Shown here: piece after piece, positions 12,174-42,815 of the stretch
Numbering within the stretch: the first letter of the stretch is position 1
Layout of the letters: every line of letters begins with the position of its first letter
NCBI GenBank assembly: GCA_017410525.1
Contig: JAFQQQ010000002.1
Location: 205,591 to 269,590, forward strand
Length of the DNA stretch: 64,000 nucleotides
Reading direction: 5' to 3'
Source: Bacilli bacterium
GTDB lineage: Bacteria; Bacillota_I; Bacilli_A; RF39; UBA660
Notes under the pieces: model-generated
Database searches by the model: none
Seen by the model: the letters and a program-made list of their open reading frames with translations, nothing else
What the model was told of the DNA's origin: nothing
Position numbers and translations under genes: made by a program

Positions 12174-13415
12174 ATGAATGAAAAATACTTAATTATTAAT
12201 GCTGGTAGTTCATCTTTAAAATTTTCTTTATATGAAATTCCAGAAGTAAAAGAAATTGTAAATGGTTGCGTAGAAAAAATAGGAAATGAAGATAGTTTTT
12301 ATACTTTAAAATATGACGATAAAAAAGAAGAAAAAGTAAAAGTAATTATGAATCATACTCAAGCTGTAGAAACTATGCTTTATGAGTTGTTAATAAATAA
12401 TTTTATAAGTGATGTTAATGAAATAAAAGGAGTAGGACATAGAGTACTACATGGTGGAGAAAAATATTTTGATTCAGTTGTAATTGACGATGAAGTTATA
12501 AACGATATAGTCGATTTAACTAAATTAGGGCCACTTCACCACCCAGGTAATTTATCAGGAATACTTGCTATGCAAAAAGCAATACCACATATACCACAAA
12601 TAGCTGTATTTGATACTTCTTTTCATCAAACAATAAATGAAGAAAATTATATATATCCTATACCATACTCTTGGTATAATGAAAATGGAGTAAGAAAATA
12701 TGGCTTTCATGGGACTAGTCATAAATATATTACGGAAACTATGCAACAATATTTAGATAAAAAAGATGTTAACTTAATAATTTGCCATATTGGTAGTGGA
12801 GCTAGTATGTCTGCAATAAAAAATGGTAAAAGCTGTGATACAACAATGGGTTTAACTCCACTAGATGGACTTATGATGGGTACTCGTTCAGGCTCTATTG
12901 ATCCATCAATTATTGAATATATTTGTAAAGAAAGAAATTTAACTGTATCTGAAGTTACTAATATTTTAAATAAAGAAAGCGGTTTAAAAGGAATAAGTGG
13001 CGTAAATGATTTCAGAGATGTAACAGCTTTAGCTAAACAAGGAAATCATAATGCAAAATTAGCTATAAAATTATTTGAAAAATCAATAGTTAAATATATC
13101 GCGCAATATTATTTTGAATTAAATGGTGATGTAGATGCTATTATATTTACTGCAGGTGTAGGAGAAAATATGTCCTACGTTAGAGAAGATATAGTTAATC
13201 TTATTTCAAAACCAATGGGTATAAAAATTAATAAAGAAATTAATGATAACATTGCTAAGTTTAAGCAATATCAAAGTGGTGTTATAACAACAGATGATTC
13301 TAAAATTAAAGTAATGGTTATACCTACTAATGAAGAATTAATGATATTAAAGGATACTGTTAGATTAACTAAAAAATCAAAAGATTTAAATAAAGAGAAA
13401 AAATTAACTAAATAA
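12174..13415 (+). CDS. ackA: Acetate kinase
   Basis: INAGSSSLKF, HRVLHGG, FDTSFH, GFHGTSH and GVGEN motifs. I prefer the ATG at 12174 (GGGGGA RBS) over 12162. Confidence 0.95.
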   Translation: MNEKYLIINAGSSSLKFSLYEIPEVKEIVNGCVEKIGNEDSFYTLKYDDKKEEKVKVIMNHTQAVETMLYELLINNFISDVNEIKGVGHRVLHGGEKYFDSVVIDDEVINDIVDLTKLGPLHHPGNLSGILAMQKAIPHIPQIAVFDTSFHQTINEENYIYPIPYSWYNENGVRKYGFHGTSHKYITETMQQYLDKKDVNLIICHIGSGASMSAIKNGKSCDTTMGLTPLDGLMMGTRSGSIDPSIIEYICKERNLTVSEVTNILNKESGLKGISGVNDFRDVTALAKQGNHNAKLAIKLFEKSIVKYIAQYYFELNGDVDAIIFTAGVGENMSYVREDIVNLISKPMGIKINKEINDNIAKFKQYQSGVITTDDSKIKVMVIPTNEELMILKDTVRLTKKSKDLNKEKKLTK

Positions 13416-13436
13416 TAATATTTTAAGGAGGGAGAT

Positions 13437-14075
13437 ATGAAAGTAATTGAGTTGGAAGAAAAATATATTTTAGAATATATAAAATATATGATTTCTAGTT
13501 TTAAAACAATACCTATAGAAATAAATAATGCTAAATATCATCATAATACAAGTTATTCTGATGTACCTTTGGTTTTAAAACAAGGTATTTTGTCGGTGTC
13601 AGAATTAAATAGATTAGGTATAAAAAAATATTCTCCTGAAATATTAAATTTATGGAGTGACATAGAGTCACATATTAATGGTATAGATTCAATATCATTA
13701 TCTGTAGTTGGTTTAAAAGATTTATATGTAGATGAATTTGAATATGATCCGTTTATACCAACAAAAGTAGATTTGAATATTTCAAGTGATATATCTACAC
13801 TAAGATCAAGTATACATTATGGAAATGAATTTTTATGTTATGAAAATATAGGAATTGATAAAATAAAATCAATTGATATAAGATTACTAGAATTAATTGA
13901 AAAAAGAAAAGATTTTACAATAAAAGATATAATAAATAAATATAATTGTTTAAAGGATGTTGCATTAGCAATTAAAGAAAATAACTTAGATATTCCTTTT
14001 AGAGAAATGTCTAATGATAATTGTGCATTAGATATAACTAAAGTGTCAGAGATGCCTAAATTAATTTTAAAATAA
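13437..14075 (+). CDS. Hypothetical protein
   Basis: 212-aa ORF with a GGAGGGAG RBS. Terminator CAAATGAAA/TTTCATTTG plus T-run lies just after the stop. No family recognised. Confidence 0.55.
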   Translation: MKVIELEEKYILEYIKYMISSFKTIPIEINNAKYHHNTSYSDVPLVLKQGILSVSELNRLGIKKYSPEILNLWSDIESHINGIDSISLSVVGLKDLYVDEFEYDPFIPTKVDLNISSDISTLRSSIHYGNEFLCYENIGIDKIKSIDIRLLELIEKRKDFTIKDIINKYNCLKDVALAIKENNLDIPFREMSNDNCALDITKVSEMPKLILK

Positions 14076-14147
14076 AGCAAATGAAAAAATTTCATTTGTT
14101 TTTTTAAAATATTTATATATAATAGAGATAGAAAAAAGGTGATTTAA

Positions 14148-14324
14148 ATGATATATATAGTAAGACATGGACAGACGGATTATAATGTAGAAGGTAGATA
14201 TGGTGGTAGGATAGGTGTAGAATTAAATATTAAAGGAATTGGGCAATCACATATCATTCATAATGAATTAAAGAATATAAAGTTTGATAATGAAAAACTA
14301 AAAGAATTACAAAAATATATATAA
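14148..14324 (+). pseudogene. Truncated histidine-phosphatase (PGAM/CobC-like) gene remnant
   Basis: My translation is MIYIVRHGQTDYNVEGRYGGRIGVELNIKGIGQSH..., which carries the RHG catalytic motif. It stops after 58 codons, whereas family members run about 190-210 aa. A start-less reading frame follows to 14503. Confidence 0.6.
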
Positions 14325-14522
14325 TAGTTCATGACAATATTGATTTTGACTCTTATTTTTCAAGTTATATATTATCTAAAATACTTCAAAGTTTAAACAC
14401 AAATGCTATTTTTACTATTTTTGATGATTATAATATTGGTGATGATGATAGAAAAATAATAGATGGTTATAAAAAAGAAAAAAATAGAATTAAACAAAAA
14501 TAGAAAAAAATGTAAAAAGGTG

Positions 14523-14551
14523 TTGACAAACAAAAAAAATTAGAGTATTAT
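14523..14551 (+). promoter_or_regulatory. Sigma-A-type promoter of the leader and RSH operon
   Basis: TTGACA (14523-14528), 17-nt spacer, TATTAT (14546-14551). Confidence 0.6.
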
Positions 14552-14593
14552 TTAATGTAATATTTTTATCTTTTTAGACAAAGGAGGAATATT

Positions 14594-14740
14594 ATGGTTA
14601 ATTGCTTTAACATAGAAAGATCAGTGATAAAATCAAAATCTAATGTTATTTGCAACAGCTTCTGCTGCAATACTTTAGTATGCTTTTCAATTCTTTCTTG
14701 TCTAAATGAAAAGATGAAAAGCGATATAGCAAAGTCTTAA
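14594..14740 (+). CDS. Small Cys-rich ORF (48 aa, 6 Cys) within the operon leader; either a RiPP-type precursor or an attenuation leader peptide
   Basis: My translation is MVNCFNIERSVIKSKSNVICNSFCCNTLVCFSILSCLNEKMKSDIAKS. A strong RBS AAAGGAGGAATATT precedes the ATG. The TAA stop (14738-14740) lies in the apical loop of the terminator hairpin. Below the size cutoff of the supplied track. Confidence 0.55.
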   Translation: MVNCFNIERSVIKSKSNVICNSFCCNTLVCFSILSCLNEKMKSDIAKS

Positions 14741-14772
14741 TGACTTTTCTTGTCGCCTTTCATCTTTTTTCT
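14709..14772 (+). terminator. Intrinsic terminator / attenuator between the leader ORF and the RSH gene
   Basis: Outer stem AAGATGAAAAGCGA (14711-14724) pairs with TCGCCTTTCATCTT (14753-14766): 13 bp plus 1 mismatch. Inner stem AAAGTC/GACTTT spans 14731-14747. A TTTTTTCTT run follows. The competing pairing is GCTTTTCA (14682-14689) with TGAAAAGC (14715-14722). Confidence 0.7.
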
Positions 14773-14803
14773 TATAAAAATATAAAAGGAAAAGGAGGGA
14801 TTT

Positions 14804-16237
14804 ATGATAACTATTGAAAAATTATTAAATCATGTAAATACTTATAATCCTGGAGAAGAAGAAATTATAAGAAAAGCTTATGAGTATGCTGATTATTTAC
14901 ATGGAAATCAAATTAGACAAAGTGGAGAACCATATATTACACATCCTTTGAATGTTGCTTATATTTTATCTGAAATGCATGCAGATAGAGATACAATATG
15001 TGCTGCACTCTTACACGATACTCTAGAAGATACAAATACAACTAAAGAAGAAATAGCTGATTTATTTAATAAAGAAATAGCTAACTTAGTAGACGGAGTA
15101 ACAAAGATAAGTAAAATGAATTTTTCTAGTAAAGCAGAACAAAATTTAGCAAACACAAGAAAAATCATAACAGGGCTTACAGAAGATGTAAGAATAATAA
15201 TAATAAAATTAGCCGATAGACTTCATAACATGAGAACTTTAGAATTTAAATCTGAATTTAAGCAAAAAGAAAATTCTTTAGAAACAATGGAAATATTTGT
15301 ACCGCTTGCTTATTATATAGGTGCTTATAGAATAAAAAGTGAGCTAGAAGATATATCTTTTAAATATTTAAAACCAGATAAATATAAAGAAATAGAACAT
15401 AGAATAAATAACTCTAGTATTGAAAATAATAATTGCTTAAATGAAATGTTATTGAATATAGAAGAAATATTAAATAATGAGTCAATACCACATGAAATAA
15501 AAGTTAGAACAAAAAATATATATGGAATATATAAAAGAATAGATAATGGAGAAAACAAAATAAGTGATATACACGATTTATTATCTTTAAAAATAATGGT
15601 AGATGATATAAAAAATTGTTATATAACACTAGGTCTTATACATGATAAATATCATCCAATAAATGGAAGATTTAAAGATTATATTTGTAATCCTAAAACA
15701 AATCTATATAAATCTTTACATTCTACAGTATTTGGGCCTAATGAAAAATTAGTACAAACACAAATAAGAACATTTGATATGGATAAAATAGCATCCTTTG
15801 GTTTAACAGCATATTGGGATATAAATAAAGGTGATGCAAGATATACTATGCAACAAGATTTAAGAGATAATTTTCAATTTTTTAAATCATTATCAGATAT
15901 AAATGTTATGTTTAAGGATAATCAAGATTTTGTATCTCAAATAAAGAATGAATTATTCGCAAATAAAATTTATGTGTATACTACTAACGGTAAAATAATA
16001 GAATTACCTAAAGGATCAAATATTATTGATTTAGCTTGTTATATGGACATAGAAAATGTATTAATAGGAGCTAAAGTAAATGATGAAATAGTTCCTATTG
16101 ATTATATTTTAAAAAATAAAGATAGGGTAATACCACTTATAGATGAATTATCTTATGGATATAGAGAAAGTTGGATAGAAAAAGCGAATACAGTTTATGC
16201 TAAAAAGAAAATAAAGGGGTTAATAGAGAGTAGGTAA
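14804..16237 (+). CDS. RelA/SpoT homologue: HD hydrolase + RelA/SpoT-type domain + TGS, lacking the usual C-terminal regulatory domains
   Basis: HD region: YITHPLNVA...LLHDTLEDT...ADRLHNMRT. Synthetase-like region: RTKNIYGIYKRI...RFKDYICNPKTNLYKSLHST...VQTQIRTFDM...ASFGLTAYW. TGS-like region: IYVYTTNGKIIELPKGSNIIDLACYM. It is 477 aa, against about 730 aa for typical long Rel proteins. Confidence 0.8.
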   Translation: MITIEKLLNHVNTYNPGEEEIIRKAYEYADYLHGNQIRQSGEPYITHPLNVAYILSEMHADRDTICAALLHDTLEDTNTTKEEIADLFNKEIANLVDGVTKISKMNFSSKAEQNLANTRKIITGLTEDVRIIIIKLADRLHNMRTLEFKSEFKQKENSLETMEIFVPLAYYIGAYRIKSELEDISFKYLKPDKYKEIEHRINNSSIENNNCLNEMLLNIEEILNNESIPHEIKVRTKNIYGIYKRIDNGENKISDIHDLLSLKIMVDDIKNCYITLGLIHDKYHPINGRFKDYICNPKTNLYKSLHSTVFGPNEKLVQTQIRTFDMDKIASFGLTAYWDINKGDARYTMQQDLRDNFQFFKSLSDINVMFKDNQDFVSQIKNELFANKIYVYTTNGKIIELPKGSNIIDLACYMDIENVLIGAKVNDEIVPIDYILKNKDRVIPLIDELSYGYRESWIEKANTVYAKKKIKGLIESR

Positions 16238-16240
16238 AAA

Positions 16241-17401
16241 ATGTTATTTAGATTAGTTGCAATTCGTTGTCATAAAAATATAATTTTCTGTGACAGTTTT
16301 AATGAAAACTTTGAAAAAATACAATTAGCAATTCCATCAGAACTTTTCAACTCATTAGGACTTAAAGTAGGTAGTGTAATTTCTACAAATTATCAAATTA
16401 CTAAAAATAAATATGGAAATGATTTGTATTTCATAAATGATGTACAAAATGTATCAAATCATAATAAAAATATATCTTTTAAATCTATAAATACAAAATT
16501 ATCATCCATGAATCAATCTAGTTTTATTAGTGCATTAAATGGTGGAGTTAATTTAAAATATTGGGAAATGAAACAAAAACTTTTAGAAGAAATTAGAAAA
16601 TTTTTAGTAAATAGAAGTTACATAGAAGTAAATACTTCATTGTTAATGGATAATAGAGGTACTAGTACTGTTAACCCTATGCAAGTAAATGGTAAATACT
16701 GTGGTAATAAATATTTAAAAATAACTCATGAATTAGAATTAAAAAAAATTTGTTATCTTACTTTAAAATCATTATTTGAGATAGGATATGTAACAAGAGA
16801 TGTATATTCTACTAGTAAATCTGCTAATCAATATTTAACATTTGAATTAGTTGCACCTATAGAAGATACATTAACAGCAGAAGAATTATATATTTATGTT
16901 TATGAGATTGCAATTAAGTTGGCTGAATCATATGGTATTTCTTATAATGAGATATTTAATAAAATAGAAACAGTGGATGTTTTAAAATTATATTTATCAA
17001 ATCATAAAAAGATTGATAAGAAAGAATTCCTTGAGTTTTATAAAAAACTATTAGAATTAGAAAAAAATATAATATATGTAAATGCGCCTACCAATACTCC
17101 TTTAGCGAAAGAATCAGAATACGGAATACCTTTAGAAACAAAATGGGCTATAGGAAATAGGGGTATAGGTCATGGATATTATGATCAAAATCAGTTATCG
17201 GTTATAGAAAATTTATTTGAATTACAAAAAGATGCACTAAAAGAAAAAGGGATAGATTCCAGTGTTGATAAAGAATACTTAATGACTTTAATGTATGCAG
17301 GTATAGATACAAAAAGTTTAAATATAGGGATTGATAGATTTATGTATAAATTTTTAGGTTTAGATCACGAAGAGAAAGCAATAAAAATATTAGGATTATA
17401 G
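16241..17401 (+). CDS. Divergent class IIb aminoacyl-tRNA-synthetase paralogue (Asp/Asn/Lys-RS-like: OB fold plus a compact catalytic core)
   Basis: N-terminal OB-fold-like pattern (LFRLVAIRCHKNIIFCDS...KIQLAI...GSVISTNYQI). Motif 1-like IRKFLVNRSYIEVNTSLL. Degenerate motif 2, GYVTRDVYSTSKSANQYLTFELVAP. Motif 3, LNIGIDRFMYKFLGL. Confidence 0.6.
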   Translation: MLFRLVAIRCHKNIIFCDSFNENFEKIQLAIPSELFNSLGLKVGSVISTNYQITKNKYGNDLYFINDVQNVSNHNKNISFKSINTKLSSMNQSSFISALNGGVNLKYWEMKQKLLEEIRKFLVNRSYIEVNTSLLMDNRGTSTVNPMQVNGKYCGNKYLKITHELELKKICYLTLKSLFEIGYVTRDVYSTSKSANQYLTFELVAPIEDTLTAEELYIYVYEIAIKLAESYGISYNEIFNKIETVDVLKLYLSNHKKIDKKEFLEFYKKLLELEKNIIYVNAPTNTPLAKESEYGIPLETKWAIGNRGIGHGYYDQNQLSVIENLFELQKDALKEKGIDSSVDKEYLMTLMYAGIDTKSLNIGIDRFMYKFLGLDHEEKAIKILGL

Positions 17402-17411
17402 AGGTGAACAA

Positions 17412-18671
17412 ATGAAAGAAGATAAAATATTATTTTTGTATCCGCCGACAGTTTATGCTAACCATAGTATGTTTAAGCATTTTACTTATTTTGGCGAAAC
17501 GATAGATGTTATAAGTAGATATTATAAAAATATAAAAGTTTTAGACTGTGCAGTTGAACAAATAGAACAAAAGATAATATTTAATAATTTTAAAGATAGT
17601 AATTTATTAGTAATGGAAATAGAACCTTATAACATAGATGTTGCACTATCTTTAGGAAAATTATATAAATCATTCAACAGTAAAGGAAAAATTATAGTAT
17701 ATGGTACTGCAATTACAATAATGCCCAATTATTTTATGAAACAACATTTATTTGATTATATAATTAATGATGGTAATTTTGCTGTTGGTATATTGGGGGT
17801 AATGAATGAAATTTTAAATACAGAATATCCTTATGAAGTTAAGAGTAAATATTATGAATTAATAAATGGTGAGTATATAATGAAGGGTGATAATTTTCAA
17901 CTTCCAATAAAAGATTGGGGTGTTGGATATAATAAATTATTACCATTAGAAAAATATAAATTTTATAATAATGGTATGTTTGAATTAACTGTTCAAACCG
18001 GTTGCCCTTTTAATTGTTCTTTTTGTTCTGAAAAAATATTATTTGATAAGTATTGTGGAACAAAATATAGAGATGTTGAAGATATTATTAAAATAATGAA
18101 AAATATTAATGACGATTTTAATGAAATATATTTTTCTGCTACAACAATGACAGCAAATAGAAAATGGACTGAAAATTTATGTACTAGATTAATTGAAGAA
18201 GGTAATAAAATGCCTTGGAGAACAGTTACTAGAATTGATTGTGTTGATGAAGAATTGTTAAAATTAATGAAAAAATCAGGATTAAAGAAAATTTGTTTTG
18301 GTGTTGAAACGTTTGATGATAAATTATTAGAAGAGATAAATAAAAAACAAAATGCAAATAATGTAATTAATATATTAAAATTATGCAATAAATTAGGTAT
18401 TAAAGCCAAAGCTTTACTTATGTTGGGTATACCAGGACAAACAGCAAAAAATGTTTTTGATACAGTGAAAATATTAAAAGATTTAAATGTGGAATATAGA
18501 TTTAAAGAATATTCTCCTATTCGTGAAGCACATATATTAGATTCTAAAAATTCTGATATCTCTGATATGATTCCTATTTTTAGTAGATATGAATATAGAA
18601 CAAGTAGTATTCCTGGAATAACTAGTGAAGAATATATGGAATTACTTTTTCCTACAGAATATGTGAGGTAG
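17412..18671 (+). CDS. Radical SAM enzyme with an N-terminal B12-binding-like domain (class B type)
   Basis: CPFNCSFC (CxxxCxxC) at about residue 198, preceded by a Rossmann-like ~150-aa domain (ILFLYPP...LLVMEIEP...IIVYGTA). Confidence 0.75.
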   Translation: MKEDKILFLYPPTVYANHSMFKHFTYFGETIDVISRYYKNIKVLDCAVEQIEQKIIFNNFKDSNLLVMEIEPYNIDVALSLGKLYKSFNSKGKIIVYGTAITIMPNYFMKQHLFDYIINDGNFAVGILGVMNEILNTEYPYEVKSKYYELINGEYIMKGDNFQLPIKDWGVGYNKLLPLEKYKFYNNGMFELTVQTGCPFNCSFCSEKILFDKYCGTKYRDVEDIIKIMKNINDDFNEIYFSATTMTANRKWTENLCTRLIEEGNKMPWRTVTRIDCVDEELLKLMKKSGLKKICFGVETFDDKLLEEINKKQNANNVINILKLCNKLGIKAKALLMLGIPGQTAKNVFDTVKILKDLNVEYRFKEYSPIREAHILDSKNSDISDMIPIFSRYEYRTSSIPGITSEEYMELLFPTEYVR

Positions 18672-18678
18672 ATTAGCA

Positions 18679-19707
18679 ATGATTGAACATTTAAAAAGTG
18701 GTTTGTCAATATCGACACATTTAGGTTGTGGATTAAAGTGCTCGTATTGTATTTTGTCAACCATGGACGGTTTTAATGAGGGCCCGGTATTACAAATTAA
18801 ACCCAAGGATTTAATATTTAAATTATTTAATGAATATGAATTTTATTGCAAAAATAAAACACCTTTAATGTTAAATAATAGAACAGATCCATTTTTACCA
18901 ACTGTAACACCGTATACTTTAGAAATTTTAGATTTATTAATTGAAAAGCAAGTCGAGTCTCCAATTATAATAATTTCAAAGTTTGCGCCGCCTACAGTTT
19001 TAAAAAAATATTTTTCTTTATTAAATATTTGTTACTTTTATTCTTATTCTGGTATAGATACTGATTTTAACTATAATAAACTTAAAAGTGATTTACAACT
19101 AATAAAAAATGTTGTTCCTAGGTCTTCTAGATTTCATTATTTTAGACCGATAATACCAGGAGTGAACGATGATTTTGAATTTATGAAAAAAATATTAAAT
19201 ATATTTAGTGAAAATGAATTTGATGCCACTGTAATTGCTGGATTTAGGGTAACTAATCTAAATAAACATTTAATAAAAAAGGAAACGATAGATGTTGAAA
19301 AAATTGATTATAATCATAAATTAGTAGATAGTAGTATATATGAAATAAATAAAATATTTAATGCCGAAAATTATCGTATATTTAGACATACTAGTTGTGC
19401 TATAGCAAACCATTTTAATTCTTTTAACAAATTAAATTATTTTTCAAAATGTGGTCATTGCTTTGAATCATGTCCTAACTATGACAACTGTTTAAATAAA
19501 AGAATAAATATTAAAGATATTTTAAAAGAACTTAAAGAAAAATTTGGTAATGAATATAATTTTAAAATTAAAGATAACAAAATTGAAATATTGTCTTTAT
19601 GTACTCAAGAATTAGTTGCTTATATAAAAAATGCTTATGGGTGTGAGATTATTGCAACCAATGTTAAATTATCAAAATCTGAAGAGGTGATTTTAGGTGA
19701 AAAATAA
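18679..19707 (+). CDS. Radical SAM enzyme (compact, with a C-terminal Cys cluster)
   Basis: GCGLKCSYC near the N-terminus. A later cluster, CAIANH...CGHCFESCPNYDNC, could hold an auxiliary Fe-S cluster. Confidence 0.65.
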   Translation: MIEHLKSGLSISTHLGCGLKCSYCILSTMDGFNEGPVLQIKPKDLIFKLFNEYEFYCKNKTPLMLNNRTDPFLPTVTPYTLEILDLLIEKQVESPIIIISKFAPPTVLKKYFSLLNICYFYSYSGIDTDFNYNKLKSDLQLIKNVVPRSSRFHYFRPIIPGVNDDFEFMKKILNIFSENEFDATVIAGFRVTNLNKHLIKKETIDVEKIDYNHKLVDSSIYEINKIFNAENYRIFRHTSCAIANHFNSFNKLNYFSKCGHCFESCPNYDNCLNKRINIKDILKELKEKFGNEYNFKIKDNKIEILSLCTQELVAYIKNAYGCEIIATNVKLSKSEEVILGEK

Positions 19708-20248
19708 TATTATAGTGGGATGCGATTTACATAATACTTTGTTATTAAGCAATGAAGCTTGGATAAAAGCATTTATAAGTCTTAATTCTAAATTGGATAT
19801 AAATGAAATTTCTAATTTTATATATAGTAAAAAATCAAGAAAAGAAATGGCTAGATTATATAATATTGATTATAATGTATTATTAAATACTTATCATAAA
19901 AATTGTATTCCTAATATAAAATTATTAAATTTTATTAAAGAACTTAAAGTTAAAGGGTTTCCTATTGTTTTAATTTCTTCATCAAGCGAAGAAAAAGTAA
20001 AAAAAGATTTAGAGAAACTAAAAGAATATATTTCTTTTGATAAAATTTATACAAAAGAAACATTTTCTAAAAGTGTTTCTAAAGATTGGGATATGGTTAT
20101 AAAAGAATATAGAGCAAAATTTATGGTATATATAGGAAATGACTATGATGAAGATATAATACATAATGATAAAGTAATATCTATTCTTTCAGGACATTTT
20201 TTTACAGAATTGAAAAAAAACGGTTTTTTAGAAGAAAGAGGTAAATAA
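19697..20248 (+). CDS. HAD-superfamily protein with variant motif I
   Basis: GCDLHNTL (DxH instead of DxD), LISSSS (motif II), GNDYDEDI (motif IV). GTG start overlaps the upstream gene by 11 nt. Confidence 0.55.
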   Translation: MKNNIIVGCDLHNTLLLSNEAWIKAFISLNSKLDINEISNFIYSKKSRKEMARLYNIDYNVLLNTYHKNCIPNIKLLNFIKELKVKGFPIVLISSSSEEKVKKDLEKLKEYISFDKIYTKETFSKSVSKDWDMVIKEYRAKFMVYIGNDYDEDIIHNDKVISILSGHFFTELKKNGFLEERGK

Positions 20249-20250
20249 AA

Positions 20251-21168
20251 ATGGAAATATATTTAAAAAAAGAAGATATAGAAAGTTATCTAATAAATCA
20301 GGAAGAAAATATAAAAAACATGATTGATAATTTAGATTCAAGTTGGCCACATTATAATGCAGTGAAAAAATTATTAGAAGAGACTATGTTAGAAATAAAA
20401 AGAAAAGATATACATTGTAATGCTGTTTTATCTTCTACTAAGCATGAACGAAAAATAGAAAAATATGTAAATTGGGTTGAGGTTTATAGACTAGCAAATT
20501 ATCATTTTTCAAAATATACTAGTAGTAATACTTCTTATAGTGAAGGATTGTTTTCAACATTACTTGCGTTAAATAGTATGTATATACATAATAAAAAAAT
20601 TAAGGATATTGGAATAATTGGTTGTGGTCCAGGAAGAAGCGTTTTAGATTTTTCTTTAGCTTATCCAGATGCCACTATTTATGGTTTAGATTATTCCTTA
20701 GTTTCCTTAGTTTTAGCAAGAAATATTGTTAGTACAAATAATAAAAATATTGAGATTATAAGAAGAGATGATGAAGTAGTATTAGATAAAGTTGAAAGCT
20801 TTAATAGGACAAATTGTAAATGGGGAATGTTTGATTTAACTAAATCTAATTTAAATGAAAAATTTGATATCGTAGTATGTTCAAATGTAATAAATTTAAT
20901 GCCTAATCATAAAGATGCTATAAATAAAATTTATGATATGATAAAACCTAATGGATATTTAATATATGCTGATTTAACTGGTTGGAGATTAGATAGAAAG
21001 AAAGAACAACAATTACTTTCTGATAAAAAAGCTATAAAAAATAGTTTTGAAAACGTAGGCTTTGAAACTATAGAATGTTTTGATGGTGGACCATATATAG
21101 AAAAAGAAAATAAAGATAATTTCACGTTTTATAAACAAACTTATTATATAGGAAGGAAGGTAAAATGA
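20251..21168 (+). CDS. Class I SAM-dependent methyltransferase
   Basis: IGIIGCGPGRSVLDF (motif I), GLDYS, VVCSNVINLM. Confidence 0.75.
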   Translation: MEIYLKKEDIESYLINQEENIKNMIDNLDSSWPHYNAVKKLLEETMLEIKRKDIHCNAVLSSTKHERKIEKYVNWVEVYRLANYHFSKYTSSNTSYSEGLFSTLLALNSMYIHNKKIKDIGIIGCGPGRSVLDFSLAYPDATIYGLDYSLVSLVLARNIVSTNNKNIEIIRRDDEVVLDKVESFNRTNCKWGMFDLTKSNLNEKFDIVVCSNVINLMPNHKDAINKIYDMIKPNGYLIYADLTGWRLDRKKEQQLLSDKKAIKNSFENVGFETIECFDGGPYIEKENKDNFTFYKQTYYIGRKVK

Positions 21169-21824
21169 AAAATATAATATTATTAAGTGGACCTGATAAA
21201 ACAAAATATTTTGCTAAGGAAATATCAAAAGAAATAAAAAATAACGTTACGCATCCAACAAATATGGTTGTAATACCGGCTGATCCAAATAATTATGAAA
21301 AAAATGATAAACAATTTAAAGGGAATGAAAGTGTAGTTGGAGTATTTAAAACATTTAAAAAAATATTTCCAGATATAAATATTGTTTTGTTAGATAATAG
21401 AGTAGATTCTACAAGTGGATTAAACAAGTTGAAGAAAGCAGATATTATTTATCTACTTGGTGGAAATCCTTTTATTCAATTAGAATACTTGCAAAAAAAT
21501 AATTATAGTGATACAATATGCAGCACAAATGCATTGGTTATGGGAGTTAGTGCTGGATCAATGAATTTAGCTGTTGATTCTTATTATTCTAAAGATGAGG
21601 ATTATCCAGAAAGTGTAATTTATAAAGGATTAGGAATTGTTGACATGACTATAGATCCACATTTTGATATTAACAATGAAGAACAGGTTAAAGAAATAAA
21701 AGTTAATTCAAAAGATAGAAAAATTATTGGTTTACCAAATGATTCAGCAATAATTGTTTCAAATAATAATATAAAATATATTGGTGATATTTATTTATTT
21801 GAAAATGGTGAATTAACTAATTAA
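21165..21824 (+). CDS. Peptidase S51 (dipeptidase E / cyanophycinase-like) family protein
   Basis: LLGGNPF, GVSAGSMN (nucleophile Ser context), DPHF. ATGA overlap with the methyltransferase gene. Confidence 0.6.
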   Translation: MKNIILLSGPDKTKYFAKEISKEIKNNVTHPTNMVVIPADPNNYEKNDKQFKGNESVVGVFKTFKKIFPDINIVLLDNRVDSTSGLNKLKKADIIYLLGGNPFIQLEYLQKNNYSDTICSTNALVMGVSAGSMNLAVDSYYSKDEDYPESVIYKGLGIVDMTIDPHFDINNEEQVKEIKVNSKDRKIIGLPNDSAIIVSNNNIKYIGDIYLFENGELTN

Positions 21825-21855
21825 TTAGTTAGTTTACAAGATAGGGGGAATTGGA

Positions 21856-23433
21856 ATGAATTGGGCATTAGAAGAAGCAAAAAAATTAGTTGAAAAGCAT
21901 CCTGAAAAGGAAGAATTTGTAATCGCATCGGGGGTTAGTCCATCTGGATTTATACACATAGGAAATTTTAGAGAAATCGTTACTACATTTTTTGTAGGTA
22001 AAGAATTAGAAAATTTAGGGAAAAAAGTTAGATTTATATTATCGTTTGATGATTTTGATAGATTTAGAAAAGTTCCTAAAGGAATGCCGGAAAGTTATAG
22101 TAAGTATATAGGAATGCCTTATACTAGTATACCTAGTCCATTTAGTGAAAATAAAACTTATGCTAAAGAAATGGAAGATATATTTGTAAGTGAATTAAAT
22201 AGACTAGGAATTAATCCTGAAACCATATCTCAAACAGAACAATATAAAAGTGGAAGATATGATGATAAAATTAAATTAGCTATGGAACAAAGAAAAAAAA
22301 TATTTGATATAATGGCTAATTATAAAACTCAAGAATTTACAGAAGAAGATAGAAATAATTATTATCCTATAAGTTTATATTGTGAAGAATGTGGTAAAGA
22401 TTCAACAACTATATTAAATTATAATGATGTAACAGGTGATGTAGAATATAAATGTACTTGTGGGCATCATCATATTCAAAATATAAATAAATGTGGTAAT
22501 ATAAAGTTACAATGGAAAATTGATTGGCCAATGAGATGGCAAAAAGAAGGGGTAATTTTTGAACCAGGTGGTAGAGATCATTCTGCAGAAAATGGAAGTT
22601 ATGCTGTATCAAAAGAAATATCTAAACGAATTTTTGAATATGAAGCACCATCCTATGTAGCCTATGATTTTATTGGTATTAAAGGCGCTAATGGTAAAAT
22701 GGCTTCATCAACAGGAAATGTTTTAACATTAACTGATTTATTAAGTGTTTATGATAAAAATATAATATTATGGTTTTATGCCAAAAATAGACCTAATCAT
22801 CAATTTAATATAGCGCTTGATGAAGATGTATTAAGATTCTATACAGAATATGATAGGATGGTAAAAGCATATTTTGAAGGTAAATTAGATGATAAAAATT
22901 CTAGTATTATATCATTAACAGGAGTAACTAGTGGGTATGTTAATAATCCTAATTTTGGATATATAGCAAACTTTTTACCGATGGTAAGTTATAAAGAAGA
23001 AGCACTTGCAAAATTATTAAGTAAAGAAAATATTGATTGTTCTACATTATATTTTAAAAATAGATTACTAAGAGCAACCAATTGGTTAGAAAAATATAAT
23101 AATAGTAAAATAAAAGTGTTAGATGAATTTAATCAAGAATATTATGAAACATTAAGTGATGAAGAAAAAGAATGGTTAGAAAAAACTTTAGTTGTTTTAC
23201 AAAATGAATATGAAACTACTCAGGATTTACAAACAGATTTATATGCTATTGTAAAAAATGGTATAGAAGATTCTAAAGAATTAAAAAATAAACAAAGAAG
23301 ATATTTTCAGATAATTTATAATTTAATTATAGGAAAAGATAATGGACCAAAAATGGGATTATTGCTATCTGCAATGGATTATGAAGTTGTAAAATCTAAA
23401 TTGCAAAAATCAAAAGAAAAAAAATTAAGATAA
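21856..23433 (+). CDS. lysK: Class I lysyl-tRNA synthetase (LysK-type)
   Basis: SGFIHIGNFREI (HIGN), GKMASSTGN (KMSKS-equivalent), Cys-rich insertion YCEECG...CTCGHHH. 525 aa. Confidence 0.8.
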   Translation: MNWALEEAKKLVEKHPEKEEFVIASGVSPSGFIHIGNFREIVTTFFVGKELENLGKKVRFILSFDDFDRFRKVPKGMPESYSKYIGMPYTSIPSPFSENKTYAKEMEDIFVSELNRLGINPETISQTEQYKSGRYDDKIKLAMEQRKKIFDIMANYKTQEFTEEDRNNYYPISLYCEECGKDSTTILNYNDVTGDVEYKCTCGHHHIQNINKCGNIKLQWKIDWPMRWQKEGVIFEPGGRDHSAENGSYAVSKEISKRIFEYEAPSYVAYDFIGIKGANGKMASSTGNVLTLTDLLSVYDKNIILWFYAKNRPNHQFNIALDEDVLRFYTEYDRMVKAYFEGKLDDKNSSIISLTGVTSGYVNNPNFGYIANFLPMVSYKEEALAKLLSKENIDCSTLYFKNRLLRATNWLEKYNNSKIKVLDEFNQEYYETLSDEEKEWLEKTLVVLQNEYETTQDLQTDLYAIVKNGIEDSKELKNKQRRYFQIIYNLIIGKDNGPKMGLLLSAMDYEVVKSKLQKSKEKKLR

Positions 23434-23456
23434 ACTAAATTTGTTTATCTTTTTTG
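23428..23456 (+). terminator. Intrinsic terminator closing the operon
   Basis: AGATAAAC (23428-23435) pairs with GTTTATCT (23443-23450), followed by TTTTT. Confidence 0.7.
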
Positions 23457-23514
23457 TGTTATAATAAGATTGTAGGGGATAAGTATAATGAAAAAAATTA
23501 TTTAAGGAGGAAAT

Positions 23515-23997
23515 ATGATAAGAGAAGCTTTAGAAAAAGATGCTGAGAGAATTGTATATATTAATGTAATGTCTTGGAAAAATACGTATAAACATATTTT
23601 TCCACAAGATTTTTTAGATAGTCTTAATCCTATGAGTATTGATAATATTGAAAAATGTAAGAAAAAAATAAATCAATATATAGTATATGAAGTTGATAAT
23701 AAGGTAGTAGGGTTTGCTAGATTTGGATTAAATAAGAAAAATTATGGTAATGAGTATGGAGAAATACATGCTTTATATTTAGATGATAATTATAAGGGAA
23801 TGAATATAGGAACTGAGCTTGTAAAGTATATATTTGAAAAATTGAAGTCAACATATAAATATGTCTTGATAAGTACTTTAGTTGAAAATAATGCTAATAC
23901 ATTTTATAAAAAATTAGGTGGAAAATTTATAGGTCAAAGTGAATTTGAATTAGAAGGTAAAAAATATTTAGAAAATGTATATGAATATGTTTTATAA
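23515..23997 (+). CDS. GNAT N-acetyltransferase
   Basis: ALYLDDNYKGMNIGTELV acetyl-CoA-binding loop. 160 aa. Confidence 0.75.
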   Translation: MIREALEKDAERIVYINVMSWKNTYKHIFPQDFLDSLNPMSIDNIEKCKKKINQYIVYEVDNKVVGFARFGLNKKNYGNEYGEIHALYLDDNYKGMNIGTELVKYIFEKLKSTYKYVLISTLVENNANTFYKKLGGKFIGQSEFELEGKKYLENVYEYVL

Positions 23998-24059
23998 TTG
24001 ATATAAAAATATATATAACTATAATAAGAAAGATTTCTATTTTTATAGAAATAAAAAAG

Positions 24060-24767
24060 GTGTTTATGAATAAATTTTTAAAAGATATAGAATTTGATAA
24101 TGAATATATAAATTCATGTATAACTAAAGTAGATAATAAATTAAAAGAATATATAAACAATAAAATATTACCTGAATATGATTTAAATGATGAAGGTCAT
24201 AATAAAAATCATATAGAGTTTGTTCTTAAAAGAGCGCTTGAACTAAGTAAAAATTATGATATAAATTACAATATTTTATATGTGTCTGTTAGTTTTCATG
24301 ATATTGCTTGTCATATAAATAGAGAAGAACATGAAGTTTTATCTGCTAATATAGCTTATAAAGATGAATTTTTAAATAAATTCTTTAATAAAGAAGAATT
24401 AACTATAATAAAAGAAGCAATAGAAGACCACAGGGCATCTTCAGATAAAATACCACGTAATATATATGGAAAAATATTATCTTCAGCTGATAGAAAAGTA
24501 GATATAAAAACATATTTGATTTCCTCTTTATTCTTTCAAGTAACAGATATTAGTAATTTAGATATGAATGAAGCAATAGAACAATCTTATAATCATGCTA
24601 TTAAAAAATTTGGTAAGAATGGGTATGCTACTAATAAGTTTTACGTAGATGACAAAAGATATAAAGAATTTCTTACAAACTTACAATATCTAATTGATAA
24701 TAAAGATGAGTTTTATAAATTAGCTGAAATAGTATTTAATGAAGTTAAAAGCAATAAAAAGAATTAA
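24060..24767 (+). CDS. HD-domain phosphohydrolase
   Basis: GHNKNHIEFV ... VSFHDIACH (H...HD). Terminator AGATAAAC/GTTTATCT at 24869-24889. Confidence 0.65.
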   Translation: MFMNKFLKDIEFDNEYINSCITKVDNKLKEYINNKILPEYDLNDEGHNKNHIEFVLKRALELSKNYDINYNILYVSVSFHDIACHINREEHEVLSANIAYKDEFLNKFFNKEELTIIKEAIEDHRASSDKIPRNIYGKILSSADRKVDIKTYLISSLFFQVTDISNLDMNEAIEQSYNHAIKKFGKNGYATNKFYVDDKRYKEFLTNLQYLIDNKDEFYKLAEIVFNEVKSNKKN

Positions 24768-25001
24768 ATTTGAAACATATATATTTTTTATACATAAAAA
24801 AGACTATTTCATACAAACATATTGATTTTTAACTAAAAAAATATATTATATAATTAAATATTTAATTTAGATAAACATTTAGTTTATCTTTTTTATTATT
24901 TTTTAACACATTTTTGTTGAAATGAGTTGTTGGAATGTGCTAAAATATATTTGTAATTAAAGATATGTTGCAGATTATTAAATCGATTGGGGGAAACGAT
25001 T

Positions 25002-26807
25002 ATGGAAAATAAAAAATTTGTTTTTGATAAGGAAGGCAGTAAAAAAATTACGGGATTTGCTTCTATAGATAAACCTTGGAATAGATTTTATAGAAAAGAA
25101 CCTATTAGAGAAATTAAGTTAAATCAAACTATTTATGATATGGTATTTGGTGAAAACATTAATAATATGGATGACGATGCTCTGGGATATTTAGGAGTTA
25201 GCTTAACTTTCAATCAATTAAAAGCTAAAGTTGACCAATTTGCAGATGCGTTACTTAAATCTGGTTTAAATAGCGGTGACGTAGTTTTAATGGGGGTTTC
25301 TAATTCTCCTGAATCTATCATAGCATTATTAGCATTAAATAAAATTGGTGTAGTTTCTAAGTGGTTTGATATTAGAGCAAGTGAAAAAGATATAGAAACA
25401 TATGCAAAATCAAGTAATTGTAATTATATGATTGCATTCGATATGTTAATACCTAAAATAGAAAAAACATTATCGAATGTGGATTTTAATAAAATAATAA
25501 TAATAAATCCAACAGATTCTTTACCAAAAATTAAACAAGAATTATATAAACTTCAATGTAAGAAAAATGGAACATATGTAAAAATGCCTTCGGATAAGAG
25601 ATTTGTTAGGTTTAATAATTTTATGAAATTAGGAAGCAATAATTCAAAATTAGAAAGTGTCCAATTTGATGCCACAAAACCTTCAATTATGATACAATCA
25701 AGTGGTACTACGGGTAAACCAAAAACTATAGTTCATTCTGATTCTTCTTGTGTTAATTGTACTCATAAAATGGCTTATACAGATTTACCGTTAGGTAGAG
25801 GTAAAAAGATGTTAGTAGCTTTACCGCCTTGGATTGCATATGGATTAGGTAATGCCATAATAATGCCTTTATCATATGGAACTAAGGTAGAACTTAGCCC
25901 TAATTTTGATCCTAATGCTGTATTAAAAAATATAGGTAAGTTTACTATTTCTTTTGCAGCTCCATTTCATTATCGTTATTTAAAAGAACATTTTTCAGAA
26001 TTAACTGAAAAGCAAAAAGAAGCTTTTAAAATGGTTGAATGCTTAGCGTCTGGTGGAGACAAAATGTCTATAGAAGAAAATAACGATTTTGAGAAGACCT
26101 TTGGCGTTGTACTTATAAATGGTTATGGTAACAATGAAGGTTGGGGGGTATTAACTGTAAATCCTACACTTCATAATAAATATGGTACAGTTGGTATACC
26201 TAAATTTGGCGATTTAGTAATCAGTTATGATACTGACAATGAAAAAGAAAATGCATATGGTGAGTGGGGAGAAATATGCTCATTAACTGATACTTCAATG
26301 TTGTATTACGAAGATAATTTAGAAGAAACTAAAAAAACTTTACAAACTCATCCAGATGGTAAAGTTTGGATACATACTGGAGATTTAGGTTTTATAGATG
26401 AAGATGGTTTTATTCATTTAGGTGGAAGAGCTAGACGAGTTATTGTAAGGCTAGGATTTAAAATATCTGCATATACAATAGAAGATAAATTATCTGAACA
26501 TCCAGCAGTAAAAGAATGTGTTGCGGTTTCTGTAAAAGATGCTGAAGAAGAACATGTTCCAATGGTATACATAATTTTAAAAGACGAGTATAAAGCATTA
26601 TCTGATACAATAGAAAATGATATATATGTAAAATTGTCACAAGAATTAAAAGAATATGAAATACCAAAATATTTTAGAATTGTTGATAGTTTACCATATA
26701 CTCAAAATGGTAAATATGATTTTGTTTCTTTAGAAAAATATGGTAACGAATATGTTGATAGTTTAGATTCAAACGATAAAATATTTAAAAAGAAAATAGG
26801 TGATTAA
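25002..26807 (+). CDS. AMP-dependent acyl-CoA/acyl-adenylate ligase (ANL superfamily)
   Basis: QSSGTTGKPK AMP-binding motif, GYGNNE, TGDLGFIDEDGF, and GK near the C-terminus. ATG at 25002 preferred (GGGGGAA RBS). Confidence 0.85.
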   Translation: MENKKFVFDKEGSKKITGFASIDKPWNRFYRKEPIREIKLNQTIYDMVFGENINNMDDDALGYLGVSLTFNQLKAKVDQFADALLKSGLNSGDVVLMGVSNSPESIIALLALNKIGVVSKWFDIRASEKDIETYAKSSNCNYMIAFDMLIPKIEKTLSNVDFNKIIIINPTDSLPKIKQELYKLQCKKNGTYVKMPSDKRFVRFNNFMKLGSNNSKLESVQFDATKPSIMIQSSGTTGKPKTIVHSDSSCVNCTHKMAYTDLPLGRGKKMLVALPPWIAYGLGNAIIMPLSYGTKVELSPNFDPNAVLKNIGKFTISFAAPFHYRYLKEHFSELTEKQKEAFKMVECLASGGDKMSIEENNDFEKTFGVVLINGYGNNEGWGVLTVNPTLHNKYGTVGIPKFGDLVISYDTDNEKENAYGEWGEICSLTDTSMLYYEDNLEETKKTLQTHPDGKVWIHTGDLGFIDEDGFIHLGGRARRVIVRLGFKISAYTIEDKLSEHPAVKECVAVSVKDAEEEHVPMVYIILKDEYKALSDTIENDIYVKLSQELKEYEIPKYFRIVDSLPYTQNGKYDFVSLEKYGNEYVDSLDSNDKIFKKKIGD

Positions 26808-29461: not shown

Positions 29462-29592
29462 CTTAACTGAAAAAGTTAAGTTTTTTTATTTACTTAGAGT
29501 TGGATAAATGGTATAATTGTATTAGGGTAAAAGATAATTAATATTGTAATATTTTTTTATGTGGTAACAGTAAAAAAAGGAGAATGTTAATT

Positions 29593-30841: not shown

Positions 30842-30910
30842 ATCATCACCTCTATAATTATATTGAATAAATTGAGTATTTATGTTATTATATTCGAAGG
30901 AAGTGATTGT

Positions 30911-39912: not shown

Positions 39913-39989
<77 letters not shown>

Positions 39990-40003
39990 TCTTATTAAAA
40001 TAT

Positions 40004-40080
40004 GGCCGGTTGGTGAAGCGGCTTAACACACATGCCTTTCACGCATGCATTCACGGGTCCGAATCCCGTACCGGTCACCA
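40004..40080 (+). tRNA. tRNA-Glu (anticodon UUC)
   Basis: Acceptor GGCCGGT/ACCGGTC, anticodon stem CATGC/GCATG with loop CTTTCAC, T-arm GGGTCCGAATCCC, CCA encoded. Confidence 0.9.
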
Positions 40081-42471: not shown

Positions 42472-42546
42472 TGCCCCATAGCCAAGCGGTAAGGCAGTGG
42501 ACTCTGACTCCAATATGCGAAAGTTCGAATCTTTCTGGGGCAACCA
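42472..42546 (+). tRNA. tRNA-Gln (anticodon CUG)
   Basis: TGCCCCATAGCCAAGCGGTAAGGCAGTGGACTCTGACTCCAAT...TGGGGCAACCA. The anticodon loop is CTCTGAC. Confidence 0.9.
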
Positions 42547-42549
42547 AGT

Positions 42550-42636: not shown

Positions 42637-42638
42637 AT

Positions 42639-42712: not shown

Positions 42713-42717
42713 CTTTT

Positions 42718-42791: not shown

Positions 42792-42815
42792 CTATTATTT
42801 TTAACCCTTAAACAC

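Follow-up and report, generated by a model that had tools for sequence, protein, structure and literature searches.

What does a bacterium gain from an operon in which a paralogue of class II lysyl-tRNA synthetase (LysRS) and two radical-SAM enzymes are encoded between a truncated RelA/SpoT-type protein (RSH) and a complete class I LysRS? Such an operon lies in a window of 64,000 nucleotides (the whole stretch analysed here; contig JAFQQQ010000002.1 of assembly GCA_017410525.1, a Bacilli bacterium of the RF39/UBA660 lineage), in which eight tightly packed open reading frames (ORFs) on the + strand span positions 14804-23433. An earlier inspection of the letters and their translations, called here the sequence-only reading, had proposed that these genes form a dedicated system rather than scattered housekeeping genes and that no characterised pathway has such a composition. 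Both proposals held. The core is co-inherited, recurring across lineages in rearranged orders and with gene fusions; no pathway of this composition was present in the HMM libraries searched, and the gene set was not described in the literature searched. The block is predicted to be one transcription unit around a conserved accessory biosynthetic cassette, and a lysine-linked antimetabolite is tentatively proposed as its product.

A gene set that recurs across lineages

The same gene set was recovered at more than 25 loci. The carriers were metagenome-assembled genomes (MAGs) of uncultured Bacilli, 'Tenericutes' and Erysipelotrichaceae, members of the Lachnospiraceae and one Marsarchaeote (L017); the cassette is found in human and animal gut bacteria, and one carrier, Lachnoclostridium sp. 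An131 (Lachnospiraceae, L014), is cultured. The family of the LysRS paralogue is very small: a set of 5.8 billion sequences yielded 30 clusters, a second set of 1.84 billion (1.84e9) proteins yielded 39 representatives at E<=1e-30, and the paralogue was found in 5 of about 185,000 species genomes. In every complete paralogue-bearing locus recovered, the paralogue was encoded together with both radical-SAM enzymes (rSAM1 and rSAM2) and an HAD protein; co-localisation of its homologues with the two radical-SAM genes was a check that the sequence-only reading had asked for. An S51-like gene accompanied this core in most complete loci and a methyltransferase (MT) gene in many. The invariant partners are the LysRS2-derived paralogue, the two radical-SAM enzymes and a DxH-type HAD, and a genuine LysRS is repeatedly placed in or beside the cassette.

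Gene order was variable. The window type (RSH, aminoacyl-tRNA synthetase (aaRS)-like paralogue, rSAM1, rSAM2, HAD, MT, S51, class I LysRS) was rearranged in Lachnospiraceae to class I LysRS, rSAM1, rSAM2, HAD, MT, aaRS-like, S51-like, and in L024 to rSAM1, rSAM2, HAD, aaRS-like, S51-like, class I LysRS. L005 had the order GNAT, aaRS-like, rSAM1, rSAM2, HAD, convergent with NUDIX and class I LysRS. Fusions joined a radical-SAM enzyme to the aaRS-like protein in L004 and P0289, and HAD to MT in L041. Mobile or accessory genes surrounded several copies: a serine recombinase in L001, ParD, AbiEii and HTH_17 in L005, a relaxase and a MatE efflux pump in L018, and Mob_Pre in L041. Enzymes acting on phosphates or nucleotides recurred near the cassettes; HAD was always present, and NUDIX, CYTH, DUF402, dCMP-deaminase-like and His_Phos_1 proteins were also encountered.

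The genes for rSAM1, rSAM2 and HAD, sometimes joined by MT, were also recovered at loci that have no aaRS paralogue. In a natural-product-like cluster of Paenibacillus (L016) and in related metagenomic loci (L029-L032) this core is accompanied by a SPASM radical-SAM enzyme and a GT2 glycosyltransferase, and L016 has in addition a carrier protein and an adenylating enzyme, which replace the aaRS-like gene. Because the Paenibacillus core carries that pair instead, the amino-acid-activating module appears to be exchangeable, and an exchangeable activating module is typical of small-molecule biosynthesis. On the mobilisable element L018 the core is accompanied by the MatE efflux pump and by a fusion of MT to His_Phos_1.

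Organisms closely related to that of the window, with an RSH 67-71% identical, have this RSH gene in front of a different cassette, termed variant B (L038-L041), the composition of which is given in Table 1. Its rSAM2 is a distant one (30%), and the Mob_Pre gene of L041 lies upstream of the cassette. The deaminase of variant B was considered as a TadA and rejected, the protein being ComEB/dCMP-deaminase-like. The cassette of the Marsarchaeote is likewise listed in Table 1.

The LysRS paralogue, its partners and the linked LysRS

The paralogue is annotated by NCBI as a hypothetical protein and matched tRNA-synt_2 of Pfam weakly (31 bits). Its best NCBIfam matches were LysRS and EpmA, all far below threshold: 48.1 bits against a cut-off of 427.6 (TIGR00499) and 48.2 against 468 (NF001756) for the class II LysRS equivalogs, and 33.3 against 286.9 (TIGR00462) and 36.9 against 264 (NF006828) for EpmA/GenX. 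The AlphaFold model (pLDDT 81.5, pTM 0.81) consisted of an N-terminal beta-barrel (OB fold) and a class II core. Among the top 50 Foldseek matches of this model in the PDB, 49 were full-length class II LysRS chains and one was an AspRS (best E 3e-19, TM 0.62-0.72), and the family profile matched LysRS in the PDB at 4e-21 and AspRS at 3e-6. The model and the structural matches bore out the assignment to a class IIb synthetase with an OB fold, which had first been made from motifs.

The motif 2 arginine (R186), the GIDR of motif 3 (G363/R366) and the equivalents of E. coli Glu240 and Glu278 were invariant in the family. Elsewhere the pocket was changed, with Tyr280 replaced by Val, Asn424 by His, Phe426 by Tyr, Glu428 by Asp and Glu421 by Gly (E. 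coli numbering); we take Glu240, Glu278, Tyr280, Asn424, Phe426 and Glu428 to have the roles in lysine binding that are ascribed to them in LysU/LysS. Since the ATP-binding arginines and the equivalents of Glu240 and Glu278 are kept, the paralogue is predicted to be an adenylate-forming ligase, and by alignment and model it looks like an active enzyme that accepts lysine or something similar in a pocket altered at its distal, epsilon-amino end. The variant B paralogue alters both acidic positions (to Asp and Ser), suggesting that its substrate differs from that of the window type. The Arg, Phe and Gln positions of the OB domain, which class IIb enzymes use for the anticodon, are kept in variants A and B, and their retention may leave room for tRNA binding by the paralogue.

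The first radical-SAM enzyme, rSAM1, has an N-terminal B12-binding-like (Rossmann-like) domain and a CX3CX2C core (CPFNCSFC), and matched PF04055 with 80.7 bits. It resembles the B12 radical-SAM enzymes and AprD4 in these two features; AprD4, a sugar-modifying diol dehydratase and not a methylase, was its best structure match and nearest solved relative (E 1e-9). However, no match to PF02310 (B12-binding) was obtained in the Pfam scan, and against the B12 radical-SAM families HpnJ, PhpK and BchE it scored 5- to 10-fold below the cut-offs (best HpnJ, 85.7 against 577.6). The second enzyme, rSAM2, combines CX3CX2C with four more conserved cysteines (C240, C261, C265 and C271) and an NNRTDP motif; its family, for which there is no Pfam or NCBIfam model, is part of a larger one of more than 130 clusters. 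Neither rSAM1 nor rSAM2 matched SPASM (PF13186) in the Pfam and NCBIfam scans.

Distant relatives of rSAM2 (22-30% identity) were observed on plasmids of Nostoc, Agrobacterium vitis and Streptomyces (L070-L072). They belong to a conserved module of radical SAM, 3'-5' exonuclease and P-loop ATPase, the exonuclease not being annotated in the Nostoc record, and the neighbours of the module are either genes of defence islands (anti-phage dGTPase, TIR, WYL) or those for thymidylate synthase and NDK. This uncharacterised module seems to be directed at nucleotides or DNA. Plasmid or phage carriage of the cassette itself was considered and rejected, the paralogue having no plasmid match and rSAM2 only these distant plasmid relatives in a different module.

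The HAD protein gave a weak HAD_2 match in Pfam. In the window, motif I reads D-x-H-N-T in place of DxD, with the nucleophile Asp present; D-x-H-(N/D/G)-T was found in 33/33 aligned members, the T being V or L in five variant B copies. Motif II and the acidic pair of motif IV are present (ISSSS and GNDYDED conserved), and GN(D/E)xx(E/D)D is conserved in the members outside variant B. The DxDx(T/V) signature of HAD phosphatases, in which Asp+2 is the general acid/base, is lacking. The methyltransferase is of the class I SAM-dependent type with an N-terminal extension of ~110 aa and matches to Methyltransf_31/12/25/11; PHROGs gave it a weak 'tRNA methyltransferase' match and nothing specific otherwise. 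Cassettes of the window type, of Lachnospiraceae and of the L018 type encode it, and in variant B it forms a fusion with HAD. The S51-like protein matched PF03575 with 64.9 bits (gathering score 23.9) and has the conserved Ser motif GVSAGS; against the PepE equivalog NF003642 it reached 41.3 bits, below the cut-off of 156. Unannotated genes of 221-229 aa beside the paralogue in L014, L024 and L002 proved to be cryptic S51-like genes (profile E 1e-11 to 2e-7). The Pfam and NCBIfam scans of the operon proteins agreed with the domain calls of the sequence-only reading.

The cassette is joined by a genuine LysRS, of class I in most loci, in several independent layouts. The window enzyme scored 415.4 bits against TIGR00467 (lysS_arch; cut-off 147.55), covering residues 1-517 of the protein, and 390 bits against PF01921, with the class I motifs HIGN and KMASS present. 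Its gene starts 31 nt after S51 without a T-box, and no T-box was found ahead of any cluster-linked aaRS in the eight loci scanned. LysRS is placed at the 3' end in the window type, at the 5' end in L006, L014, L015 and L021, convergently in L005 and after the S51-like gene in L024; L036 has a divergent class II LysRS that lies at the subfamily threshold (468.1 against 468). Two class I types are linked, one of 517-533 aa in the window lineage and one of 670-684 aa, in Lachnospiraceae, L005 and L024, with an extra C-terminal tRNA-binding domain. The relationships of the class I enzymes disagree with those of the adjacent paralogues in a comparison of trees, so the link arose at least twice.

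The Lachnospiraceae MAG L015 has a canonical class II LysRS (720 bits) in the usual dus-greA-lysS position, directly followed by the class I LysRS of the cassette. In An131 (L014) the same position holds a metallophosphoesterase gene and then the class I LysRS as the only LysRS there; the two arrangements suggest displacement of the class II LysRS in An131. Hundreds of stand-alone class I LysRS genes, about 57% identical, occur in ordinary contexts in related Bacilli MAGs, and the window enzyme is for that reason probably the native LysRS of its lineage and need not be an extra copy. The sequence-only reading needs correction on this point, since the window lysS may be the only one of its genome. 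No class II LysRS, second LysRS or second RSH/Rel was found in the 64-kb window; of two window ORFs of ~490 aa that were considered for these roles, one encodes a MiaB-like enzyme and the other a DAO/Rieske oxidoreductase. In a related Bacilli MAG (L068) the surroundings of a stand-alone class I LysRS include an S51 peptidase gene, a radical-SAM/SPASM gene and a gene with the helical domain of 5-hmU DNA kinase (Table 1).

The RSH shares with long RSH proteins (Rel/SpoT) the order of HD, synthetase and TGS domains (HD_4, RelA_SpoT and TGS in Pfam), scoring 502.6 bits against TIGR00691 over model positions 1-449 of 687 and 383 bits over 472 residues against B. subtilis Rel (6yxa). The hydrolase motif HD...ED is intact, and LLHDTLEDT is kept in every orthologue that covers the region. 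It differs from long RSH proteins in being the first gene of a biosynthetic-type operon, in ending after TGS at residue 477, so that the C-terminal regulatory region (helical, zinc-finger, ACT/RRM) is absent, and at the synthetase site. The catalytic Glu of the RSH synthetase (E324 in B. subtilis) is essential; the EVQIRT that contains it aligned to QTQIRT in the window protein, and the change from Glu to Gln was found in this protein and in 8/8 orthologues. The alignment points to a hydrolase-competent, synthetase-dead protein. Beside a more distant cassette (L002) lies an HD and TGS protein of 480 aa with an unrecognisable synthetase domain. An RSH or HD and TGS protein therefore adjoins three different cassette types, which argues for a functional tie. 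The sequence-only reading had counted the RSH as part of the system; it is not present in every copy, being absent upstream of the L013 cassette and from the Lachnospiraceae loci, and is accordingly not essential to the core.

Operon boundaries, leader and surroundings

The features of the window and of the related loci are collected in Table 1.

Table 1. Positions of the operon, its leader and neighbouring genes in the window, and of related cassettes and genes at other loci
Feature	Locus	Position	Strand	Description
His_Phos_1 phosphatase fragment	Window	14148-14324	+	N-terminal 58 aa, truncated; RHGQTDYN motif; PF00300
Candidate sigma-A-type promoter	Window	14523-14551	+	TTGACA-17-TATTAT; 11/12 positions matched
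Leader ORF	Window	14594-14740	+	48 aa (MVNCFNIERSVIKSKSNVICNSFCCNTLVCFSILSCLNEKMKSDIAKS); strong Shine-Dalgarno sequence AAAGGAGG
Candidate attenuator/terminator	Window	14708-14775	+	Long hairpin (to about 14769) and T-run; fold prediction
RSH	Window	14804-16237	+	477 aa
aaRS paralogue	Window	16241-17401	+	386 aa; MBQ2946610.1
rSAM1	Window	17412-18671	+	419 aa; CPFNCSFC
rSAM2	Window	18679-19707	+	342 aa
HAD	Window	19697-20248	+	183 aa
Methyltransferase (MT)	Window	20251-21168	+	305 aa
S51-like hydrolase	Window	21165-21824	+	219 aa; GGN...SAGS
Class I LysRS	Window	21856-23433	+	525 aa; HIGN, KMASS; MBQ2946616.1
Weak AT-rich hairpin and T-run (probable operon terminator)	Window	23427-23456	+	Overlaps lysK stop codon; read from sequence
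GNAT acetyltransferase, HD-domain protein, AMP-binding (acyl-adenylate-forming) enzyme	Window	23515-26807		Directly 3' of operon terminator
RhuM and Fic/DOC domain protein	Window	29584-30546		Appears unrelated to operon
MiaB-like methylthiotransferase	Window	30863-32335		UPF0004, radical SAM and TRAM; appears unrelated to operon
Seven tRNA genes	Window	39913-40080, 42472-42792, 50310-50385		Ile-GAU, Glu-UUC, Gln-CUG, Leu-GAG, Thr-GGU, Val-GAC, Lys-CUU
tRNA-Lys(CUU) and tRNA-Lys(UUU)	L005	9871-10033		Directly upstream of class I LysRS with tRNA_bind domain and NUDIX
Marsarchaeota cassette	L017	4715-11927		Aromatic amino-acid lyase/aminomutase family protein, rSAM1, LysRS2-like with OB fold, rSAM2, HAD; convergent with HisRS
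Variant B cassette	L041	6076-14864		RSH (synthetase-dead orthologue), DUF402, radical SAM, 345-aa LysRS2-like with OB fold, distant rSAM2, HAD and MT fusion, dCMP-deaminase-like, ThrRS
S51 peptidase, radical-SAM/SPASM and HMUDK_hel (5-hmU DNA kinase helical domain) genes	L068	16508-19554		Near stand-alone class I LysRS of related Bacilli MAG

The eight ORFs, with spacers of 3, 10, 7, -11, 2, -4 and 31 nt from RSH to the class I LysRS, were exactly as the sequence-only reading had placed them. The promoter that it had named was present and was the top promoter-like site within 13400-25000, a region of AT-rich DNA in which 110 such sites were found and 110 were expected from shuffles; TGACAAAC around its -35 is kept in L010, and it presumably serves as the promoter of the operon. 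The closing hairpin is present, but it is weak. Its stem at 23427-23451 has 9 bp, of which 2 are G-C pairs, followed by T-rich sequence, and it fails a stricter terminator scan.

The leader ORF overlaps the long hairpin, the 5' arm of which is formed by the final codons of the ORF with the stop codon in the loop. The last 70 nt preceding the T-run have a predicted folding energy of -22 kcal/mol, and the folding of the leader beats that of shuffles (z = -4.3). No Rfam family matched the leader at gathering thresholds, and at E<=1 only chance-level microRNA matches were obtained; a T-box or riboswitch was accordingly rejected. The same succession of Shine-Dalgarno sequence, Cys-containing ORF, hairpin and T-run precedes RSH in L010, L011 and L012, with ORFs of 33 aa in L012 and 56 aa in L010 and L011. 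The ORF in the window has 6 Cys in 48 codons, including one CC pair, and Cys recurs in L010-L012. Peptide sequence is modestly conserved apart from IKS.SNVIC...LSCLN, which the window and L012 have in common. There was no clear run of tandem regulatory codons and no conserved alternative pairing. The end of a predicted small ORF overlapping an intrinsic-terminator-like hairpin points to a translation-coupled attenuator of the RSH-led promoter.

The 'gene debris' noticed upstream of the operon includes a recognisable His_Phos_1 fragment (PF00300, 44.4 bits over profile positions 1-46 of 194), lying directly upstream of the promoter. A cassette in L018/L027 encodes the fusion of MT to His_Phos_1, and the fragment may for that reason be a decayed former cassette member, although its past membership of the operon is uncertain. 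The idea of an acquired block, which had been attached to this debris, was not borne out by composition: the GC content of the block (0.21-0.26) is no different from that of the remainder of the window, and there is no compositional sign of recent acquisition.

An AMP-binding gene lies 3' of the operon in L010 as it does in the window. A comparison of the GNAT after the window operon with the one that precedes the cassette in L005 showed no specific relationship (E 0.14). All large genes of the window but one are on the + strand and the GC skew is strongly positive, which is consistent with a leading-strand chromosomal segment.

What the cassette may make

The reading that we favour, although we hold it tentatively, is that the cassette is a pathway for a lysine-type aminoacylated antimetabolite with an insensitive LysRS, conceptually like albomycin. 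In the albomycin cluster of Streptomyces (abm; the pathway of the SerRS inhibitor SB-217452), which encodes an aaRS-like ligase (AbmF), a radical-SAM enzyme (AbmJ), a methyltransferase (AbmI) and a full aaRS (AbmK), AbmF couples a nucleoside amine to Ser-AMP; this aminoacyl-adenylate comes from AbmK, a resistant SerRS that also shields the producing strain (PMC9032320). The window shows the same combination of aaRS paralogue, radical-SAM enzymes, methyltransferase and full aaRS, and the aaRS-like ligase, tailoring enzymes and full aaRS expected of an aaRS-inhibitor cluster are found together. It differs in having no orthologous genes, no siderophore/NRPS part and no PLP enzymes; AbmF is SerRS-like, whereas the window ligase is LysRS2-like with an OB fold, and the full aaRS is of the other structural class, a class I LysRS that may be the sole LysRS of its lineage.

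By this scheme the radical-SAM enzymes, HAD and MT would remodel a phosphorylated precursor, for example a sugar phosphate or nucleotide, an idea suggested by the likeness of rSAM1 to AprD4 and the recurrence of NUDIX, CYTH, DUF402, deaminase and His_Phos_1 genes. The LysRS-like enzyme would activate lysine or a close derivative and ligate it to the scaffold, and the S51-like hydrolase might trim or release the aminoacyl conjugate or protect the producer. The product or an intermediate would act as an antimetabolite against class II LysRS at the step of lysine activation, and the truncated RSH would act in some versions as an accessory pyrophosphohydrolase or regulator. Such an antimetabolite would explain the presence of the cassette in class I hosts, the carriage of class I LysRS into class II hosts and the divergent copy in L036. 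Cross-lineage synteny, fusions, the rare and patchy distribution, the mobile contexts and the multiple LysRS architectures were counted in its favour. A second LysRS stands beside the housekeeping one in L015 and possibly in L036; class I LysRS is the normal type in the window lineage.

Several points weigh against this proposal. No product, exporter or regulator was identifiable in the window operon, and the window LysRS may be simply the housekeeping gene, as is the norm of the lineage. The equivalent of Glu421, a metal ligand in LysRS, is Gly in the paralogue. The OB-fold anticodon positions that are kept fit a tRNA-dependent role at least as well. The terminal aaRS of variant B is a ThrRS, though its aaRS-like protein is still LysRS2-derived, which indicates that the linked aaRS does not always match the amino acid. 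Finally, distant relatives of rSAM2 are found in defence islands.

The tRNA-dependent role just mentioned is the strongest of the rival readings, though we regard it with some doubt. The radical-SAM enzymes, HAD and MT would make a lysine derivative, and the paralogue would load it onto tRNA-Lys, a single isoacceptor or a special tRNA encoded elsewhere. The charged tRNA would then serve either the ribosome, bringing in a non-canonical amino acid, or an enzyme (transferase or hydrolase) such as the S51-like protein; class I LysRS would cooperate on the same tRNA or keep up the supply of Lys-tRNA, and the HD and TGS protein would act on tRNA 3' ends. The full class IIb architecture with its conserved OB fold, the TGS domain of the RSH-like partner of three cassette types, the extra tRNA-binding domain on the LysRS of Lachnospiraceae, L005 and L024, and the two tRNA-Lys genes directly upstream of the L005 LysRS all suit such a pathway. 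LysRS1 and LysRS2 have reportedly been found to act side by side on tRNA-Pyl and tRNA-Other. A dedicated tRNA was sought and rejected: none was found in or beside the window operon or in 11 of 12 related cluster loci scanned, and the tRNAs of the remaining locus, L005, are ordinary Lys CUU and UUU. Moreover, the older core lacks an aaRS-like gene and has a carrier protein and adenylating enzyme instead, an analogue loaded onto the normal tRNA-Lys would be toxic, and the distribution is mobile and patchy. The pyrrolysine cassette (pylTSBCD) likewise encodes a class II aaRS with radical-SAM chemistry on lysine, but the window cassette has no tRNA gene and no PylC or PylD homologues, and its aaRS-like protein is derived from class IIb LysRS and is not PylS-like. 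The more specific form, in which the paralogue charges tRNA-Lys or an isoacceptor with the radical-SAM-made derivative alongside class I LysRS and the synthetase-dead RSH serves as a tRNA 3'-end or alarmone hydrolase, is improbable; if true, it would be an unknown natural route to a non-canonical aminoacyl-tRNA, giving a new proteinogenic residue or a tRNA-borne building block.

It is also unlikely that the paralogue works in the manner of EpmA or GluQRS, transferring a lysine-like group made by radical-SAM chemistry to a translation factor, another protein or a tRNA base, with the linked LysRS adapted to the modified partner. The pairing of radical-SAM enzymes with a LysRS-derived paralogue recalls the beta-lysylation of EF-P by EpmB and EpmA (YjeK and PoxA); EpmA and LysRS models were the best matches, though weak ones, in NCBIfam, and the PHROG match of MT points the same way. 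However, EpmA and GluQRS have no anticodon-binding domain and the paralogue keeps one, the EpmA scores of 33-37 bits fall far below cut-offs of 264-287, and neither rSAM1 nor rSAM2 is lysine 2,3-aminomutase-like by HMM. The HAD, MT, S51 and LysRS partners also set the window apart from EpmA/EpmB, and a housekeeping role does not suit a cassette that is extremely rare, accessory and mobile in its distribution and has the activating module replaced elsewhere by an adenylating domain and carrier protein.

A nucleotide-based conflict system is distinctly doubtful. Here a modified nucleotide would be synthesised or broken down, in the manner of viperin, by the two radical-SAM enzymes together with HAD, MT and the hydrolase of RSH type, with the aaRS-like protein as sensor or modifier, in the service of anti-phage defence or inter-bacterial conflict. 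Its appeal lies in the module of radical SAM, exonuclease and ATPase that contains the distant rSAM2 relatives, in the NUDIX, CYTH, DUF402 and dCMP-deaminase-like neighbours, in the HD domain of RSH and in the toxin-antitoxin and mobile-element neighbours. However, a search for known defence systems with PADLOC gave no significant match (best 24-40 bits, to generic domains), the plasmid relatives of rSAM2 come without other cassette genes, and the linkage to LysRS would be left unexplained.

The sequence-only reading had also offered peptide maturation, by which the leader ORF would encode the precursor of a ribosomally synthesised and post-translationally modified peptide (RiPP), matured by the radical-SAM enzymes, MT and S51 and extended with an amino acid by the aaRS-like protein. 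A small Cys-rich ORF with a strong Shine-Dalgarno sequence before a leaky-terminator-like hairpin, its partial conservation between the window and L012 and the sub-threshold likeness of rSAM1 to RiPP radical-SAM families made this attractive, but the ORF is confined to RSH-led operons and is missing from the RSH-less copies L013, L001, L005, L008 and L014, which carry the same enzymes. The peptide is poorly conserved even where the enzymes are 74% identical, neither radical-SAM enzyme has a SPASM match, and the overlap of the ORF end with the terminator stem suits attenuation. Since the ORF tracks the RSH-led promoter and does not travel with the core enzymes, it was rejected as a RiPP precursor, and a RiPP cluster is very unlikely. 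It is just as hard to credit that the genes have no joint function, with rel and lysK as housekeeping genes flanking an inserted cassette and co-transcribed incidentally, for although class I LysRS is the norm of the lineage and is found unlinked in relatives, L013 has no RSH before its cassette and composition is uniform, LysRS is linked in at least five arrangements in three lineages with incongruent trees, RSH or HD and TGS proteins recur beside three cassette types, and the spacers of 3 and 31 nt contain no T-box or promoter of their own.

Should the cassette indeed produce a lysine-type antimetabolite, it would be, to our knowledge, the first pathway in nature to target the activation of lysine by class II LysRS. 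The cassette also brings together protein families for which there is no Pfam or NCBIfam model, namely a compact OB-fold LysRS2 paralogue, a radical-SAM enzyme with extra cysteines, a DxH HAD and a synthetase-dead truncated RSH, and because it is found in gut bacteria and in one cultured isolate, An131, it is directly testable.

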